Positions 26,177 to 34,224 of a DNA stretch of 64,000 bases are shown here, one piece after another. A program made the translations under genes and the position numbers. The stretch covers positions 1 to 64,000 of the forward strand of contig JAGWLG010000004.1 of the NCBI GenBank assembly GCA_028864975.1, read 5' to 3'. The stretch comes from Thermoplasmata archaeon. GTDB taxonomy: Archaea > Thermoplasmatota > Thermoplasmata > Lutacidiplasmatales > UBA184. Below the pieces are notes generated by a model that saw only the letters and a program-made list of their open reading frames with translations, was not told the DNA's origin and did no database searches. How positions within the stretch are numbered: position 1 is the stretch's first letter; each line of letters opens with the position of its first letter.

Positions 26177-28642
26177 TCAGAACTCCCCGAGGCTCGCCTG
26201 CCGTTTCTTGCGGCGGCCGGTCTCGAGGGCCTCCAGCGCGGAGGTCCCCCCGCCGACGGCGATGCCGGCCTCGACCGGGGGCCGCGCGGAGGCCACCTCG
26301 CCCCCGAAGAGGTTCTGTTGCTGCGTCCTTTGGAGCAGCCGGGCCTGGTCCCATCCGAAGACCTCCGTCACCCGGGCGAGCGTCTGGGCGACACGCTCCG
26401 CGTAGTATTGGACGTCAGGGCGGCCCTGGAGCTCTCGTCCTTCCACGTACGGCTCGACCTGCTGCGGGCTCTTCTTCGCGTTCGTCACGATCCAGGCGAC
26501 CTTCATCCCCGGGACCACGGGGTAGCCCTCCTCCTTGAGCTGTCGGAAGATCCGCAGGAAGGGGAGGGCGTCCCGGGTCGCCGCGTTGTACTGCTCCTCG
26601 CCTCGGACCGTCCGGGCGATGATGTACCGTTCGGCCTCGTACTTCCCCTGGAGGACGTTCTGCACGACCTCGCGGGCGTGCTCGCACGCCTTCTCCGTCT
26701 CCCCGGAGAGGACGAGCTCGAAGACCTCCTGCAGGCTCTGGCTCTGCAGGTCGAAGGAGTCCGTGCGCCGGGTCTCGTACCCCCGGATGATGGTGTCCTC
26801 CTTCGGCCAGACCTGACGGGCGACGTAGCGCTTCTTCACCCCGTGGCTGAAGAAGGAGGCGTAGACGCTCTGGAACTCGAGCGAGGTCCCCTCCTTCGAG
26901 AACGTGGCGGAGAGCTTCTCTCCCAGGGCCCGGGCGCCCTCCAGGGAAGGCTGCGGGGAGCGGACGAAGATGCTGTCGGTGTCCGAGTAGATCACCTCGG
27001 CGCCCTCCGCCTCGACCGCCGCGATGACGCTCTTGGTCGTTTCGCGAGCGAAGGCGGTGATCGCCGCCCCGATCTCCTTGTTCGTGAAGCGGTAGAAGGA
27101 GCTCGCGAGCACGCCGTAGAAGGAGTTCATCAGGATCTTGACCGCGTTCTGGAGTCCGTCCAGGTAGAGGCGCTCGTCGTCGCCCTTCGTCGCCTTGAGC
27201 TCGCGTTTCAGACGGTCGCGCTCCGCCATCAGGGACCGGAGGATGTCCGGGACGAGCCCCCGCCGAACGTCGGGGGAGAGGAACCGGGCCCCGTTCGGGG
27301 CCACGACGCTGCCCTGCGGGGAGAGCGTCGTGAAGCAGATGTTCTTCGAGATGATGATCGACGGGTACATCGACTTGAAGTCGAGGACCACGACCCACTT
27401 GACCAGGTCGGGCTTGATCGCGTGGACGTATCCGCCCTCGATCGCGGCGTCCCCCGCGGTCCTCCGCGTCGGGGGGACCCCGATACGGCGTCGGTCCGCT
27501 TCCGGGATGAGCAAAGAGTCGACCAGCAGGCTGGTCCGGCCGTTGAGCCCCTCCTCGAGGTAGAGGTGGGCCACGGTCGCCATGTCCGACCCCCGCTCGA
27601 CGGCGCGGAGCTTGCGGAGGATCCTCAGCGCGAGGACCGCATCGTGCTCGCAGTACTCTACGACCTTCGCCGGGTCCTTGGCCCATTCCTCGTCCATGTT
27701 CCGGCGGTCGACGTCCTTCTTCCCCTCGCCCAGGAGGAGCCGGGAGACGAACTCGAGCGTCTCCTGCTTCGGGTGCAGGATCGTCCGCGCGAACCACCAG
27801 GCGTCGGCGATGGCCCGACCGTGGGCCCGCCACAGCCGGTCGCCGATGTCGCTCACCGGGCCTAGGTCGCGTCCGAGCGGGAGGGCGCCGTTGTCGGGGA
27901 GCCCCAGAGCCTTCGCCCGCTCTTCGAGCAGCGGGATGTCGTACCCGCCGATGTTGTATCCGACGATGATGTCCGGGTCCTCTTCCTGCACCTTGGCGAA
28001 GAACCCCTCGAGGATCCCTCGCTCGGCTCCCTGCAAGCGGAAGCCCCGGAGCTCCCCGTCCCCGCGCTGGACGACCCCGCACAGGCAGAAGATGGTCCGG
28101 TCCTTGAGCGAGTTCTCGATGTCGAAGGAGAGGTACGTGAGGGGCGGTCGGAAGGTGTCGCAAGGTGAGATCGCTCCCTGGACCCGAACGACCTCCTGGG
28201 TCGTGTACCCGCGACGGGCCGCCTCCGGCTCGGGCTCTGCGTCGAAGGCGACGGTGAGCCCCAGGTCGCGGTCGTAGAGGAAACGATGGGCGAAGGGGAT
28301 GTCGCAGGCGAGGACCCCCTCGTCCTCGCCCGGCTTCGCGAACCTCCGGCGATAGTCAGGGACCTTCCAGGGGAACTTGATCGTGACGCGAAGCGTGTCA
28401 CGCTCCGCCCCTCGATAGAAGACCTTCAGGTCCTCGAGCTTCAGGACCTCGGGGTCGTGCGAGAGCGCTTCCCGGACGGCGGGGTCGGGTTCGACCAGCA
28501 TGAACCAGGGGCGGTGGTCGTAGCAGCGGGCCGTGACCGACCGCCCGTCCTTCGTGCGTCCGAAGAGCTCGACGACGACGGAATCGCCGTCGGGGTGGTG
28601 GCGGTAGGAGCCCCCGAGAAGGAAGAGCTCGTACCGGGACAT
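26177..28642 (-). CDS. polB: Family B DNA polymerase
   Basis: Exo motifs FDIE, GYN...YD, YC..D; polymerase motifs DFKSMYPSII, K..MNSFYG, YSDTDS; C-terminal PIP-like QASLGEF. Confidence 0.97.
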   Translation of the reverse strand: MSRYELFLLGGSYRHHPDGDSVVVELFGRTKDGRSVTARCYDHRPWFMLVEPDPAVREALSHDPEVLKLEDLKVFYRGAERDTLRVTIKFPWKVPDYRRRFAKPGEDEGVLACDIPFAHRFLYDRDLGLTVAFDAEPEPEAARRGYTTQEVVRVQGAISPCDTFRPPLTYLSFDIENSLKDRTIFCLCGVVQRGDGELRGFRLQGAERGILEGFFAKVQEEDPDIIVGYNIGGYDIPLLEERAKALGLPDNGALPLGRDLGPVSDIGDRLWRAHGRAIADAWWFARTILHPKQETLEFVSRLLLGEGKKDVDRRNMDEEWAKDPAKVVEYCEHDAVLALRILRKLRAVERGSDMATVAHLYLEEGLNGRTSLLVDSLLIPEADRRRIGVPPTRRTAGDAAIEGGYVHAIKPDLVKWVVVLDFKSMYPSIIISKNICFTTLSPQGSVVAPNGARFLSPDVRRGLVPDILRSLMAERDRLKRELKATKGDDERLYLDGLQNAVKILMNSFYGVLASSFYRFTNKEIGAAITAFARETTKSVIAAVEAEGAEVIYSDTDSIFVRSPQPSLEGARALGEKLSATFSKEGTSLEFQSVYASFFSHGVKKRYVARQVWPKEDTIIRGYETRRTDSFDLQSQSLQEVFELVLSGETEKACEHAREVVQNVLQGKYEAERYIIARTVRGEEQYNAATRDALPFLRIFRQLKEEGYPVVPGMKVAWIVTNAKKSPQQVEPYVEGRELQGRPDVQYYAERVAQTLARVTEVFGWDQARLLQRTQQQNLFGGEVASARPPVEAGIAVGGGTSALEALETGRRKKRQASLGEF

Positions 28643-28668
28643 GGCCCCGCGAGCCTACGATGGAGATA

Positions 28669-28676
28669 GGGGTTTG
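28669..28676. repeat. Left target-site duplication GGGGTTTG
   Basis: Identical 8-mer at 30227-30234; both copies abut the inverted repeats. Confidence 0.85.
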
Positions 28677-28698
28677 GTATGTGTTCAGCTCCCCCGGC
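28677..28698 (+). repeat. Left terminal inverted repeat
   Basis: GTATGTGTTCAGCTCCCCCGGC; 18/22 identical to the reverse complement of 30205-30226 (12/13 at the tip). Confidence 0.85.
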
Positions 28699-28907
28699 AA
28701 GAACTCAGGTGCTGACGGCGCTAGAACCTGCGGCCAGTGCGCCACGGTTGTGATCTCTTCGTCACGGCGGGGAGGCAGCCCCGCAGTCCCCGCCTGAAAC
28801 GGTTGCGCCATCTCGAGCTCCCCTCTAGAACTCGGTTTCACGTCCTCTCGAGGGTTCATCTTCTCGGACCGCTCGTCCCTCTCTCCCCTTACGCCCCGGA
28901 GCTCCCC

Positions 28908-30218
28908 TTGCACCTCTCCTACCAGTACCGGATCTATCCTCGCCCCTCGCAGGAGGCCACCCTCGAATCCTGGAGGAAGGAGCTGGGCTATCTATGGAAC
29001 TTCGCCCTCGCTCAGCGGAAGGACGCCTGGGAGCGCGAGCACCGCCCCGTTTCCTACCTCGACCAGCAGGAGAGCCTGGCCACTTGGAGGAGCTTCGACG
29101 CTCGGGGGTTGGGGCAGGTCCGTTACGTGGTCGCCCAGAACCTGCTCCAGGAGCTCGATCTCGCCTACCGCTCCTTCTTCCGCAGAGTGAAGGACGGGGA
29201 GCGGCGACCGGGGTACCCTCGGTTCAAGAAAGACGGCACGGTCCGCTCCTTCCGCTTCAACTACGCGGACACCTACGTCAAGATCGGGACCTCGGCGACA
29301 GACCGGCGGGTCCGGCTCTCCGGGATCGGGTACGTTCCCATCGTGGTTCACCGCGAGCCCCCCGCTGATGGGAAGCTCCTCACCGCCACGGTCTCCCGCG
29401 AGGCGGACCGCTGGCTCCTGACGCTCGTCTACGAACTACCGGACCCTGCTCCGCCCCCTCCCCCCGAGGTGGCGCCCGCGAACCCTGTCGGGATCGACCT
29501 GGGGATCATGCACCCCCTCGCCCTTTCCACCGGAGAGGTGGTCGAACCTCTGCGTCCCCTTGAGGCGGCGGAGGAGCGGCTGAAGCGGGAACAGCGACGA
29601 CTCGCTCGGAAGGAGAAGGGGTCGAACAACCACCGCAAGCAGGCGGCGAAGGTGGCGCGCTGCCATCAGAGGGTCGCGGACCGTCGCAAGGACCTCTGCC
29701 ACAAGCTGACCTCCCGTATTGCGCGCGAGCACGACCTGGTGGCGGTGGAGGCGCTGAACGTCCCGGGGATGGTCCGCGGGCCGCTTGCGAAGGCGATCCT
29801 GGACGCGCCGTGGGGGAGGATGCGGTCGATGCTGGAGTACAAGCTCGCTATGAGGTCGGGGCGCTACGTGGAAGTGGACCCGCGGGGGACCACCCAGACG
29901 TGCTCGGCGTGCGGGCGGGTCGCCGACCCACCGCTTGCGCTGGGGGAGCGCGTGTTTGCCTGTCCCTGCAGGCATCGCGAGGACCGTGACGTGAACGCGG
30001 CTCGCAACGTGCTGCATCGTGGATGTGACAGCGTACGGCGGATGTCGTCGGAAGTGAAGCCTGCGGAGAGGACGCCACCACCGCGGACCGGGGGCCGTCG
30101 GGTCTACCGGGGGCGGCGAGCGACCTCGAGGAACCAGGAAGACGCCTCACGACCGGAGGGGGAGGGCTCTCCCGGGGCCATCCCCGGGCGGCGCAAGCCC
30201 CCCGGCCGGCGAGGCTGA
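28908..30218 (+). CDS. tnpB: TnpB RNA-guided endonuclease (IS200/IS605 OrfB family)
   Basis: YQYRIYP..SQ and LWN HTH, GYPRFKK, RuvC GIDLG and VAVEAL, TTQTCSAC...CPC, DRDVNAARN; all three acidic residues present. TTG start. Confidence 0.95.
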   Translation: MHLSYQYRIYPRPSQEATLESWRKELGYLWNFALAQRKDAWEREHRPVSYLDQQESLATWRSFDARGLGQVRYVVAQNLLQELDLAYRSFFRRVKDGERRPGYPRFKKDGTVRSFRFNYADTYVKIGTSATDRRVRLSGIGYVPIVVHREPPADGKLLTATVSREADRWLLTLVYELPDPAPPPPPEVAPANPVGIDLGIMHPLALSTGEVVEPLRPLEAAEERLKREQRRLARKEKGSNNHRKQAAKVARCHQRVADRRKDLCHKLTSRIAREHDLVAVEALNVPGMVRGPLAKAILDAPWGRMRSMLEYKLAMRSGRYVEVDPRGTTQTCSACGRVADPPLALGERVFACPCRHREDRDVNAARNVLHRGCDSVRRMSSEVKPAERTPPPRTGGRRVYRGRRATSRNQEDASRPEGEGSPGAIPGRRKPPGRRG

Positions 30219-30860
30219 ACATATACGGGGTTTGCTGCCTTCCGCGAAAGGGTCGGGTCGGAGGGACGGCAGGAGCACGGCGAAGCGTGCCCAGTCGTCC
30301 CGCCATCGCTCTCCGTAGCGCTTCGAGTGGAGGGTCGAGGCGGGGTGGAGCATCGGAAAGAGTGTCCGCCCCCAGATGGTGGCCGCGTGGCCCGCCGCAC
30401 GGGAGATGGGAAGTTCCTCCGGCGCGAACGCCTCGAGAGCGTGCGTGCCAAGGGTGACCAGCACGCGGGGGTCGAGCGTGCCGAACTTCGCTTCGAGCCA
30501 AGGTCGGCAAGCGGCGGCGGCCCTGCGGTCGAAGCGGTTCTGCGGGGGCCGGCACATGATCACGTTCGTGACCCCCCAGTCCCTGGGGCGAAGCCCCGAG
30601 GCCGCCACCGCCCGGTCGAGGATCCGCCCCGCCCTGCCGACGAACGGGAGACCGGAGGCGTCCTCTTCCTTCCCGGGGGCCTCTCCGATGAACAGGACCC
30701 AGGGGCGCGGCGCTCCTCGATAGACCACGACCTGATGCCGAAGGGAGGCGAGATGGCAACGGACGCACGCCTTCATCTCAAGTTCGAGGGCCGCCCACGG
30801 CACGACGGCCTCGGGAAGGCTGACGGGATGGAGCCGCAGACGCCGCCGACGCTCGGTCAA
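30147..30860 (-). CDS. udg: Family 4 uracil-DNA glycosylase; C-terminus altered by the insertion
   Basis: CVRC, FIGEAPG.EED..G.PFVG.AG, TNVIMCRPP.NR, ACRPW, PMLHPAS. Confidence 0.93.
   Translation of the reverse strand: MTERRRRLRLHPVSLPEAVVPWAALELEMKACVRCHLASLRHQVVVYRGAPRPWVLFIGEAPGKEEDASGLPFVGRAGRILDRAVAASGLRPRDWGVTNVIMCRPPQNRFDRRAAAACRPWLEAKFGTLDPRVLVTLGTHALEAFAPEELPISRAAGHAATIWGRTLFPMLHPASTLHSKRYGERWRDDWARFAVLLPSLRPDPFAEGSKPRICSASPAGGLAPPGDGPGRALPLRS
30205..30226 (-). repeat. Right terminal inverted repeat (contains the tnpB TGA stop)
   Basis: GCCGGCGAGGCTGAACATATAC. Confidence 0.85.
30227..30234. repeat. Right target-site duplication GGGGTTTG
   Basis: Identical to 28669-28676. Confidence 0.85.
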
Positions 30861-33800
30861 GGAGGCCCTACCGTAGGTGCGCCGCGATCGGGACCGGCGG
30901 GAGAGGACGCTTCGGCCTCGCGCATGAGGCGCTCGGACTCCTCGCGCAGGCGGGGCGCTTCCTCAGCATGTCCCTCGCGTTCCAGAAGCTCCGCCTCCAG
31001 CGCCATGCCCCTCCCTTCGAGGTACCGAGCTTGGGGGCGGCCCGTGAGGAAGCCCTTCGCCTCGTTCAGGTAACGTCTCGCACGAGGAGCGTCGGGGACC
31101 CTCAAGGCGAGACGGGTCATCCAGAGCCGAAGCTCGGCCTGGTCCTCCACCTCCTCGTCCCGCAGAGCGGGAGCGTTCTTCTCGAGCGAATCTAAGACCT
31201 CTGTCAGGGCGTGCGGGTCCTCGGAGAGGGCCCCCTCGGCCTCGGCCATCAGGATCCTCCCTTCGGCCAGGTGCTCCTCGCGTCCGATGCGCAGCGCGAT
31301 TTCGACGGCCTCCCGCGCGAGCTCCTTGGCCTCGACGAACCGGCCGAGGTTGAGGTAGACCCTCCCGAGCACCATCTTGGCCGCGGTCAGTCCCCGCTCG
31401 ACGCCGAACTTGAGAGCGAGCGCCAGGGACTCCTTCGCGAGCTCCTCCGCATGCTTGAGGTCTCCCGAGTAGGTGAGCACCCAGGCAGCGCTCGAGAGCG
31501 TGAAGCAGCTCGGCAGGACGGTCCCGGCCCGTTGGGCGTAGAGGTGAGCCTCGTGGAAGTCGTGGAAGGCGCTCTTGGCATCTCCCTCGCGCATGTGGAG
31601 CGCCGCGCGGGTGTTGAGGGCGGAGGAGAGGCGAACCGTGGCCCCGCAAGCCTGCGCGATCTCGATGCCCCGGTCCAGGAGCCCCCGGGCCTCCTCGATC
31701 TGCCCGGTGACGATCATGCAGTAGGCCTTCTGGATGAAGGCGGCCGCGCGCACGGGGCTCGGGCCCTCTCCCTCCGTCAGCTCGATCGCTTTCGTGAGGA
31801 CGGGGATCCCTTCCCTCCAGGCGTTCCGTCCCGAGGCCGTGAGCCCGAGGGTGACGCAGGCCAGGGCCTCTTGGGCGCGGGAGACGCTCCCGGGCCGGGC
31901 CTCGGCTAGCTCCAGGACCTCGTGAGCACGCCTCTCCGACTCTTGCACGCTCAGGTCGCGGGTGGCCCATGCGAGGTCGGCCATGAGCTCCGCCTTCGCC
32001 GCGGGTGAAGGCTCCTCGGAGAGTAGTTTGAGCAGGGCGTCGTGCAGCACCTGATTGTTCCCGAGCCCGTCGAGCGCGAACGCGAGCCGTCCCTCCTCCA
32101 GGATCGCTTCCTCGCGCTTGCCCTCCGCGCCGGCTCCCGTCCCCTCGCTTCTGCGCATCTCGCGCAGCCACGCCAGGTAGGTCCCGCCCACCTCGACGGC
32201 CGAACGCGCGGTCGCGACCTGCAACGCCTTCACGATCCAGGGGCGGGCGCGCCGACCATCCCCTGCGTCGTGGTACAAGCGGGCCAGCTCTTCCGTCCTC
32301 TCAGGACGGTGCATCGACCACCACTCCGCGAGCTTGCCCGCGACCTCCCGGCGGGAGGCCGGCGCCATCTCGGCCAAGGTCACTTCCCCGACGAGCGGAT
32401 GCGCGCAGACCCAGCGCTCCCCCTCCGGTTCGATCAGCCGACGCCGTCGGTAGAGGTTCTCGAGGCGATCGAGCACCTCTCGGGCGGGGGTTCCCAGGAC
32501 CTCGGACACCGGGGAGAGCTCGAACTCGCTCCCGGAGACGGCCGCGCACTCGAGCACCCTTCGTTCCTCCGGGGGAAGCGCTTCGAGCCGCCGTGCGACC
32601 AAACGTCGTACAGAAGCGGGCAGGGACTCGGCCGCGTCGCTCGGGGGCAGGTCCAGCACCGCCCCCCGGGAGGTCCGTCGCAGGCGCCCCTCTTCGATGA
32701 GCTGGGCCAGGATCTCTCGCAGGAAGTACGGGTTGCCCTCGGTCCGGTGGACGAGACGGTCGACGGCGCTGCGCTCGGCGACCTCGACCGAGGGCGCGTC
32801 CACCGCGAGGGCGGCGAGACGGAGCACGTCCTCCGCCCCCAGCCCCTTGAGACCGAGCACCTGGAGCAGCCCCTCGCGGGAGAGGGCGTCGCGCGCCTCC
32901 TCGAGACCGGTGAAGGCGACCGCCCGTTCGGGGCTCTCCTCCTCGCGAAAGGCGACGACCAGAAGGACCGGGAGCCCCGACTGGTTCCGTGCGAGGAACT
33001 GGAAGGCCGAGACCGATTGCGGGTCGGCCCACTGAAGGTCGTCCAGGATGAGGAGCTGCGGGGCGCGGCCCGCCGCTTCCTCGAGCATCGAGAGGTAGCG
33101 CATCAGGGTCGCGGCGGGGGTCTCGGGTCCAGATGAGGGGGAAGCTCCCTTGTCCGCGGCGGCCTTCGGGTCCTCCCGTTCCACCTCAGCGTCGGACTCC
33201 AGCAGGGAGACCTCCCGGGGCTCCAGGGCCGACGGATTGAGCGTGGTCAGAAGATGGCCGTCCGTCTCCGAGGCGACGTCGTGCAGGAACTGCAGGAGCC
33301 GCAGGACCGGAGGGAAGGCGTTCTGGCTCACGAGGTACTCGAGCCCCTCGACGGCGACGACCCGTCCTGGACCCCCTCGCAGGTGCGCCTCGAGCCTCTC
33401 CCCGAGCGCATCGATCGCCCCGGGGGCCACGTGGTCGCTCCCTTCCAGACGTGTCATCCAGAGGAGGGTCGCGCCATCCTTCAGTGCGGGTCGGGTCTCT
33501 CGGAGCGAGCTCGGCTTCTCCCGCGTCACGAGGAGGAGCGAGGACCCTCGTGCGGCCTCTTCGACCTGGTTCCAGAACCTTCGGGGCCGCCCCTCCTCCA
33601 CGATCCTCATCGTGGGAAGCGCGGGGTCCGTAGGAGCGTCCTCGCCTCGGGGAACGTTCGGGGGGACCGAGCCCCGCCGGAACACCTGCTCGAACGGGAA
33701 GAACGGGGCCAGCGACTCCTTGAGGCACCCCCCCGCCCGTACCTCGAAGCCTCTTCCTCGCGCCTCCTCCTCCAGCCATCGGAGCAGCCGCGTCTTCCCC

Positions 33801-33955
33801 ATGCCTCCCGGGCCGGTCAGGGCCCAGCTCTCGCCCCGGCCCCCGGCGGCGCGCTCGAGGGCCGCGCGGAGGTCGCGGGTCTCGCGTTCCCGCCCGACGA
33901 GCGGCGGCTGGAGCGCTCGGCCCGATGCTGGAGGGGAGTCCCGCGATATCTCCAC
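30857..33955 (-). CDS. STAND/AAA_16-type ATPase with nested DUF835-like domain, winged helix and TPR repeats
   Basis: LVGRERE, GPGGMGKT, LILDDLQWAD, RTEGNPYFL, H.LV.E and TPR helices; DUF835-like insert (LLVTRE, LWMT, VAVEGLEYL..QN.F, LNPSAL). Start GTG 33955 or ATG 34126. Confidence 0.88.
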   Translation of the reverse strand: MEISRDSPPASGRALQPPLVGRERETRDLRAALERAAGGRGESWALTGPGGMGKTRLLRWLEEEARGRGFEVRAGGCLKESLAPFFPFEQVFRRGSVPPNVPRGEDAPTDPALPTMRIVEEGRPRRFWNQVEEAARGSSLLLVTREKPSSLRETRPALKDGATLLWMTRLEGSDHVAPGAIDALGERLEAHLRGGPGRVVAVEGLEYLVSQNAFPPVLRLLQFLHDVASETDGHLLTTLNPSALEPREVSLLESDAEVEREDPKAAADKGASPSSGPETPAATLMRYLSMLEEAAGRAPQLLILDDLQWADPQSVSAFQFLARNQSGLPVLLVVAFREEESPERAVAFTGLEEARDALSREGLLQVLGLKGLGAEDVLRLAALAVDAPSVEVAERSAVDRLVHRTEGNPYFLREILAQLIEEGRLRRTSRGAVLDLPPSDAAESLPASVRRLVARRLEALPPEERRVLECAAVSGSEFELSPVSEVLGTPAREVLDRLENLYRRRRLIEPEGERWVCAHPLVGEVTLAEMAPASRREVAGKLAEWWSMHRPERTEELARLYHDAGDGRRARPWIVKALQVATARSAVEVGGTYLAWLREMRRSEGTGAGAEGKREEAILEEGRLAFALDGLGNNQVLHDALLKLLSEEPSPAAKAELMADLAWATRDLSVQESERRAHEVLELAEARPGSVSRAQEALACVTLGLTASGRNAWREGIPVLTKAIELTEGEGPSPVRAAAFIQKAYCMIVTGQIEEARGLLDRGIEIAQACGATVRLSSALNTRAALHMREGDAKSAFHDFHEAHLYAQRAGTVLPSCFTLSSAAWVLTYSGDLKHAEELAKESLALALKFGVERGLTAAKMVLGRVYLNLGRFVEAKELAREAVEIALRIGREEHLAEGRILMAEAEGALSEDPHALTEVLDSLEKNAPALRDEEVEDQAELRLWMTRLALRVPDAPRARRYLNEAKGFLTGRPQARYLEGRGMALEAELLEREGHAEEAPRLREESERLMREAEASSPAGPDRGAPTVGPP

Positions 33956-34224
33956 GGGCCGCGTCAGAGCTTTCTGCCGTAAGAGCGTGCCCGTTACCGG
34001 ACCGTTCCAAAGCGAAGAGTGGTTGGGGTTCGGGCGACTGATGTGGGGCAACTCGTCTAAGAGCTGAACCCACCTGCCCGACAGCAGCTCCACCGGTAAT
34101 GGGGGATGCGACAAACCACCTCGCATAGGGCCACCGGGCTCTCGACGTTGTGGAACGGTGACGAACGCAGAGAGAGCTCGTCCCCGGCCGCGCGGTTCAA
34201 ATCCTTCTCCCTCATGACTACCGC

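Follow-up and report, generated by a model that had tools for sequence, protein, structure and literature searches.

A tnpB gene between IS66-like inverted ends in a Thermoplasmata archaeon, probably carried by a non-autonomous insertion sequence

Cas12 descends from TnpB, a nuclease believed to retain its transposon by cutting the sites that the transposon has emptied. The model was developed on transposons whose excision leaves no scar and which make no duplication. What kind of element, we asked, carries a tnpB gene that lies between terminal inverted repeats and within an 8-bp direct repeat, as found at positions 28677-30226 of a 64,000-nucleotide stretch of DNA from a Thermoplasmata archaeon? 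This stretch (the window, to which all position numbers refer) is contig C104 of G000, a 3.6-Mb metagenome-assembled genome (MAG) of 67% GC that is 89.6% complete. The element is likely, in our judgement, to be a non-autonomous insertion sequence with IS66-type ends, in which tnpB and the scaffold of its omega-RNA replace the transposase. It integrated as DDE transposons do, is presumably mobilised in trans, and its nuclease would use a TA located just outside the duplication as target-adjacent motif (TAM).

Borders of the element and its relatives

The element is 1,550 bp long, and a Pfam scan recognised a single gene inside it, tnpB. No Pfam match was found in the four other overlapping or antisense open reading frames (ORFs), and the Pfam and ORF scan did not reveal a second gene such as a serine-recombinase TnpA of the IS607 type. 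On direct reading of the sequence, the 8-bp repeat GGGGTTTG lies outside both ends (28669-28676 and 30227-30234), the inverted arms match at 18 of 22 positions overall and at 12 of 13 at the tips, and the tnpB stop codon (TGA, 30216-30218) falls within the right arm. These values are exactly those of an earlier reading of the same DNA (hereafter the original prediction), which had likewise seen no transposase gene. In the window, the 13-nt tip is confined to these two sites, against 0.3 occurrences expected by chance, and a search of the whole 3.6-Mb genome with at most one mismatch returned the same two sites only. The features of the locus are the following.

28667-28668, plus strand: candidate TAM, a TA dinucleotide adjoining the 5' side of the left duplication (wider motif roughly G-N-T-A)
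28669-28676, unstranded: left copy of the 8-bp target-site duplication GGGGTTTG, present once in the empty site of G001 and G002
28677-28698, plus strand: left terminal inverted repeat GTATGTGTTCAGCTCCCCCGGC, 18/22 to the right arm and 19/22 to IS66-like ends in G066, G024 and G073
28677-28907, plus strand: left non-coding end, 231 bp, upstream of tnpB, with neither an IS605-type left hairpin motif nor a Pfam-bearing ORF
28908-30218, plus strand: tnpB, 436 aa, TTG start, recognised by Pfam, alignment to ISDra2 TnpB and RuvC motifs
30040-30226, plus strand: predicted omega-RNA scaffold over the 3' tail of tnpB, up to the element border, from conservation and covariation (limits approximate)
30205-30226, minus strand: right terminal inverted repeat GCCGGCGAGGCTGAACATATAC (reverse complement GTATATGTTCAGCCTCGCCGGC), holding the tnpB stop, 19/22 to an IS66-like end in G073
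30227-30234, unstranded: right copy of the 8-bp duplication GGGGTTTG, present once in the empty site of G001 and G002
30227-30246, plus strand: predicted guide segment of the omega-RNA (right duplication and downstream flank), from the general TnpB rule and the position of the TA
26177-28642, minus strand: family B DNA polymerase gene (polB; Pfam DNA_pol_B), the element lying 26 bp upstream of its start codon
30147-30860, minus strand: uracil-DNA glycosylase gene (udg; Pfam UDG at residues 49-181), whose frame enters the right end of the element

The empty udg-polB site that the original prediction had proposed to look for was found in G001 and G002, two genomes of the same genus, as ...GGAGATAGGGGTTTGCTCTGCC... 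with one copy of the 8-mer. Since the empty site holds a single 8-mer, the two repeats mark the exact borders of an insertion of 1,550 + 8 bp, and the window element is a precise insertion into the udg-polB spacer. Taken alone, the empty site fits both a duplication and an 8-mer borne by the element, and further copies were therefore sought.

The archaeal family of the window genome has TnpBs of two kinds at 43-50% identity to the window protein, IS605-type and inverted-end type (family-wide counts include the unpublished genomes G028, G070 and G082; sequence-level claims were drawn from the other genomes). The IS605-type relatives, at 12 loci including a tnpB on contig C46 of the window genome and a three-copy family in G031, have a left hairpin GCGAGCGCAAGCC... 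and a right end ...GGAGGATGTCAC, with neither inverted ends nor a duplication. The left and right hairpin motifs common to these 12 relatives are absent from the window element. The C46 gene (G000:C46:63766-64998, locus L197) is 49% identical to the window tnpB and contains one in-frame TGA; its right end, GGAGGATATCAC, is of the IS605 type, indicating that both kinds of element coexist in the window organism.

The inverted-end relatives have ends of the GTA...TCA type. At least 10 copies of a tnpB-only element (about 1,385 bp in the reference copy) are present in G030, with ends GTATTAGCTCACGTTTCAGGCAC and GTAACAGCTCACGTTTACGGCAC matching at 19 of 23 positions. By matching left and right flanks that lay on different contig ends, we obtained five perfect 8-bp duplications for this family, all different: CCTCGCGG, GCCACCGG, GAGCGGTC, CTCGCTCC and AAGTTGTC. 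This result indicates that the 8-bp repeat of the window behaves as a true target-site duplication. Further inverted-end lineages, with flanking repeats matching at 6/8 to 8/8, were found in G061, G062 (two elements), G119, G029, G032, G092 and GCA_049581265.1. An automatic scan of 28 tnpB loci for inverted ends with an exact duplication had returned the window only (66/756 in the mismatched-pair control); the remaining cases, with duplications of 6-7/8, were missed by the scan and found by reading the junctions. No clear ends were seen at the P0003 locus (L205), and a lone end-like match in G030 (L054) had no recognisable gene beside it. In six lineages, that of the window included, the TGA of tnpB ends exactly 8 nt before the border, this stop being the reverse complement of the TCA conserved in the inverted repeat.

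A maximum-likelihood tree grouped all inverted-end TnpBs in one clade (support 81/97, or 100/98 without the window), in which the window TnpB branches first; the 12 IS605-type relatives fell outside. The window TnpB belongs to one lineage of this Thermoplasmata family that swapped IS605-type hairpin ends for IS66-type ends.

The origin of these ends was sought among IS66 elements of the family. The DDE_Tnp_IS66 domain (PF03050) is present in 54 of the 121 genomes, with three loci in the window genome. On contig C5 of G100, a 456-aa transposase (PF03050, E 2e-42) lies between GTACGTGTTCAGCCCC ends and is bordered by the duplication GGCGCGTT (8/8); a copy of the IS66 transposase element in G089 is bordered by GGAACTCC, also 8/8. 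Both window arms match such IS66-like ends at 19 of 22 positions, the left arm those lying upstream of the transposase in G066, G024 and G073 and the right arm an end in G073, which is as close as the two window arms are to each other. The G030-type end matches an IS66-like end in G106 equally at 19/22, and for ends of the G061 type, agreement with other IS66 subgroups is 12-13 of 14. Judged by sequence, the ends of the window element are thus of the IS66 type, starting with GTA, matching those of DDE_Tnp_IS66 elements and accompanied by 8-bp duplications. A family-wide scan for the 13-nt tip GTACGTGTTCAGC gave matches in 42/121 genomes. About half of these lay at conserved positions in two or three conserved host genes (L128, L134, L143, L148, L154, L157, L158, L162, L169, L173 and others), so that the raw count overstates the number of IS ends and is unusable.

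The original prediction had taken the 8-bp repeat for a target-site duplication and the ends for IS66-like, and had set them apart from IS200/IS605 and IS607 ends. All three claims are upheld by these relatives, by the duplications of the IS66 elements, and by the presence of inverted ends and a duplication together with the absence of hairpin motifs; the tree that it had proposed, read together with the ends of the neighbouring TnpBs, separated the two kinds.

A separate locus bears on the history of such elements. In G106, an IS66-like element (L079, G106:C4:388474-392322) with ends GTAGTAGCTCACGATTCTGG and GTATGAGCTCAGGTTTCTGGCC directly adjoins the start of a tnpB of the IS605 type, whose right end is kept and whose left end is lost. 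It could be a snapshot of a route by which tnpB could come to lie inside IS66 ends.

The nuclease and the one-sided TA

The window TnpB was matched by the Pfam families HTH_OrfB_IS605, OrfB_IS605 and Cas12f1-like_TNB (E 4.6e-29, 4.4e-21 and 4.5e-08, respectively) and aligned over residues 5-371 to the ISDra2 TnpB structures 8bf8, 8ex9 and 8h1j (E 1.5e-44). The tail past residue 371 is without homology to solved TnpBs. The D-E-D triad of RuvC is intact (D197 in GIDLG, E281 in AVEAL and D361 in DRDVNAARN), and the zinc-finger cysteines are found as CSAC and CPC. The best start is the TTG at 28908, in agreement with the public annotation of GCA_028867515.1. On these motifs, the protein is predicted to be a TnpB-type OMEGA nuclease whose catalytic residues are intact. 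Comparison of nine clade elements revealed conservation at the nucleotide level over the last ~190 nt of the element, with two stems showing compensatory changes. An omega-RNA scaffold is predicted to overlap the 3' tail of tnpB and to end at the element border. A promoter and terminator scan, run with bacterial consensus sequences on this archaeal host, found nothing.

We then compared the flanks of the clade insertions. Nineteen of 21 tnpB insertions have a TA adjoining the left duplication on its 5' side, and none of 16 has one at the mirror position on the right (Fisher 1e-8); TA makes up 1.3% of the dinucleotides of the window genome. For IS66-like elements without tnpB, TA was present in 3/13 on the transposase-downstream side (to be compared with 19/21, Fisher 1e-4), and a wider hand tally of such elements gave about 4/21 on one side and 1/17 on the other. 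The older single-copy insertions, including that of the window, lie 25-40 bp upstream of a neighbouring gene start, and the TA found there is probably part of the promoter of this gene. The younger G030 copies occupy varied sites, and TA is still present.

The IS66-like elements without tnpB (L123-L175) show a feature of their own: an A/T-rich dinucleotide was observed 9-10 bp past the transposase-downstream end in about 10/13 of them, the other end being unbiased. This bias hints at an asymmetric target preference of the IS66 transposase itself.

In every studied TnpB, to our knowledge, the guide matches a sequence that has the TAM directly on its 5' side, and the guide itself is transcribed from beyond the right end. 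Taking this rule with the one-sided TA, the simplest reading is that the TA (roughly GNTA) is the TAM and that the right duplication provides the first 8 nt of the guide.

The mechanism that we propose can be outlined as follows. The 1,550-bp element has inverted repeats of the IS66 family (single-ORF, ISBst12-like), with tnpB and the predicted scaffold standing in place of the transposase, and entered the udg-polB spacer by DDE-type staggered integration, duplicating 8 bp. It would presumably be mobilised in trans by an IS66-family transposase recognising the shared ends. Its nuclease module probably acts in the manner of other TnpB elements, with an adjustment to a transposon that generates duplications. 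The guide would be read from the DNA past the right end, that is, from the right duplication and the flank, and the TA bordering the left duplication on the outside would serve as TAM. A site still unoccupied (TA, 8 bp and flank) would then offer the full target, whereas an occupied site would match 8 nt only.

A stronger proposal is that integration of IS66-ended elements is coupled to the TAM of the nuclease, occurring in one orientation with an 8-bp staggered cut directly after TA. Either TnpB or its ribonucleoprotein would help the DDE transposase to choose its target, or homing, with the duplication as the first 8 nt of the guide, would purge insertions lacking a TAM. We regard such coupling as speculative and rather doubtful.

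The mobilising enzyme and other explanations

Several results weigh against a trans-mobilised IS66-ended element. Searches with the whole element and with its tips found no second copy of the window element or of its ends in its own genome. In a collection of 5.8 billion proteins, the only near-identical protein was that of the conspecific MAG GCA_028867515.1, which has the same insertion and is 99.5% identical in DNA to the window genome; the next-best protein was 50-52% identical. As there is neither a second copy nor a closer protein, the case for a duplication at the window copy is drawn from its relatives. The further copies anticipated in the original prediction thus failed to appear in the window genome and were encountered elsewhere in the family, where relatives such as those of G030 have inverted ends and different 8-bp duplications. 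The window element is a single and probably stranded copy. With respect to the nuclease module, TA is replaced by AA in two lineages (the remaining 2/21), the folding energy of the 3' region is no better than that of shuffled sequences (z-score 0.07, for single-sequence folding of 67% GC DNA), and an Rfam search of 28400-30500 gave chance-level matches only.

Nor was a cognate transposase found in the window genome. None of the three PF03050 loci of the window genome, at its 89.6% completeness, has matching tips. An intact 529-aa IS66-family transposase element (C40:3102-4828, on a 5-kb contig) has the tips GTACGTGTTCAC and GTACCGGTTCAC, which match the ends of the window element at 12/22, and shows no visible duplication. 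The closest transposase (C75:14250-15611, 63% identical to the G100 enzyme) has decayed: an in-frame TGA interrupts it and its tips are eroded. It belongs to a subgroup whose intact relatives carry GTACGTGTTCAGC tips. The third locus, on C23, has a different tip type. An IS66 transposase is present in 2 of the 10 family genomes holding such tnpB elements. Neither hidden Markov model nor protein searches detected one in G030 (82% complete, 10 copies) or in the multi-copy genome G092, and no single pair of ends among these elements was seen to enclose both a transposase and tnpB. MAG incompleteness and the loss of short repeat contigs may explain this absence. Since MAG binning often drops short multi-copy IS contigs, a missing transposase carries little weight. 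The matching IS66 transposase expected in the original prediction was met in sister genomes, with ends identical at 19/22, and not in the genome of the element itself.

The same absence is the main argument for a mover of another sort: the ends would be IS66-like and the mobilising enzyme a different one, unassembled or of unknown kind, with the one-sided TA reflecting the target preference of that enzyme and not a TAM. Eight of the 10 family genomes with such elements, including multi-copy G030 and G092, indeed show no IS66 transposase, and the weaker A/T bias of the IS66-like elements without tnpB (about 10/13 A/T dinucleotides on the transposase-downstream side) would agree with a preference of this sort. 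However, each of two end types has a 19/22 counterpart among IS66 elements that encode a transposase, duplications of 8 bp accompany tnpB elements and transposase elements alike, and TA specifically is rare beside transposase-only elements (~4/21 and 1/17). We consider this explanation unlikely.

The inverted-end relatives make it very improbable that an IS605-type tnpB element landed in a pre-existing IS66-derived miniature inverted-repeat transposable element, to which the inverted ends and the duplication would belong. In G030, the whole unit was multiplied end to end with fresh duplications. Six independent lineages have the tnpB stop at a distance of precisely 8 nt from the outer border, and the conserved RNA region extends to the inverted repeat. 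The left non-coding end of the window element is longer than those of its relatives (231 bp versus about 80-110 bp), as a nested insertion might leave it, and the IS66-like element of G106 lies directly against an IS605-type tnpB, but no internal IS605-type end motif was detected in the window element. The nested insertion that the original prediction had named as a ground for refuting it was thus answered in its favour.

Hardly credible, finally, is an ordinary IS605/IS1341-type element inserting 3' of ...TTTG, with its own right end finishing in GGGGTTTG and the repeat as target mimicry: the left-target and right-end tetranucleotides of IS605-type elements are often similar, the sister group fits (target TGAC, right end ...GTCAC) and the empty site alone cannot tell mimicry from duplication, but the 8/8 match is far above the 4-5 nt needed by such systems, the hairpin motifs of the 12 relatives are absent, the window ends are inverted repeats matching IS66 ends, and a related family has five different 8-bp duplications, so that the inverted-end relatives strongly disfavour it.

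The insertion has altered the neighbouring udg gene. The last 23 residues of its product are changed, from the right duplication inward, giving 237 aa versus 215 aa. An uninterrupted frame would stop 22 codons sooner, with the C-terminus ...SKPLSPS, within the region upstream of polB, which was duplicated and left intact by the insertion. Directly upstream of udg, a gene for a 1,089-aa protein (30857-34126, minus strand) has AAA_16, DUF835 and TPR repeat matches and a weak match to BrxC/BrxD. A similar AAA_16-TPR gene also adjoins the clade element of GCA_049581265.1 (L208).

Comparison with known systems

IS605 and IS607 elements have neither inverted ends nor duplications (PMC4810608, PMC3119063, PMC13565253). 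With the IS1341 group of the IS200/IS605 family the window element shares its protein family (47-50% identity to the IS605-type neighbours), a similar size and a single gene; it differs in having inverted ends and a duplication and in lacking subterminal hairpins. Because the definition of the IS200/IS605 family excludes inverted ends and duplications (PMC4810608, PMC3119063), the element falls outside the IS1341 group. It is also unlike IS607, in which inverted ends and duplication are both absent and the termini are GG, and it has no serine-recombinase TnpA. Its ends resemble those of single-ORF IS66 elements (ISBst12-like), with GTA-starting inverted repeats of ~20-26 bp, 8-bp duplications and 19/22 end identity. 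Unlike these, it has no transposase, its cargo is a nuclease, and the stop codon and the RNA scaffold overlap the right repeat.

Pairing of TnpB with DDE transposons has precedents. Altae-Tran et al. 2023 (PMC10691335) reported six TnpB branches associated with DDE transposases (DDE-1 to DDE-6) and bounded by inverted terminal repeats, together with solo TnpBs that share these ends and are probably mobilised in trans. The mechanism put forward in the original prediction is thus largely borne out, but its "undescribed system" is of a kind already described, and its premise that tnpB carriers lack terminal inverted repeats is out of date. As in these branches and solo TnpBs, tnpB lies here between symmetrical inverted ends with its 3' end near the transposon end; the distance of 8 nt from stop to border is within the 250 bp used in PMC10691335 to define DDE-associated TnpBs. 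As for the solo TnpBs described there, the ends match those of transposase-bearing elements, implying mobilisation in trans. The difference lies in the partner family, IS66 in our case; the accessible parts of these sources name IS630 (PMC10691335) and ISL2 and IS1031 (review PMC13565253), with no mention of IS66. A literature search for an RNA-guided TnpB linked to IS66 ends found no paper.

If our interpretation is correct, IS66 joins the transposase families that TnpB can serve, and the multi-copy relatives offer a compact archaeal system for asking whether the TAM biases DDE integration. A natural comparison is provided by sister TnpBs, ~47-50% identical, that reside either in hairpin-ended elements or in IS66-type shells making 8-bp duplications.

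The element also resembles the Fanzors of eukaryotic DDE transposons, in that an RNA-guided nuclease of the TnpB type is carried by a transposon with inverted ends that makes a duplication. For Fanzors, the 5' duplication is interpreted as belonging to the TAM, and the 3' duplication is placed within the RNA scaffold (PMC13565253), whereas the duplication described here varies, has the candidate TAM on its outside, and would, in its right copy, form the first 8 nt of the guide. The strictly one-sided TA suggests how the geometry of guide and TAM was re-fitted to a DDE transposon, differently from Fanzors. The pairing of DDE transposons with TnpB has been known in outline since 2023; what is new here is the IS66 partner family and the geometry proposed for TAM and duplication.

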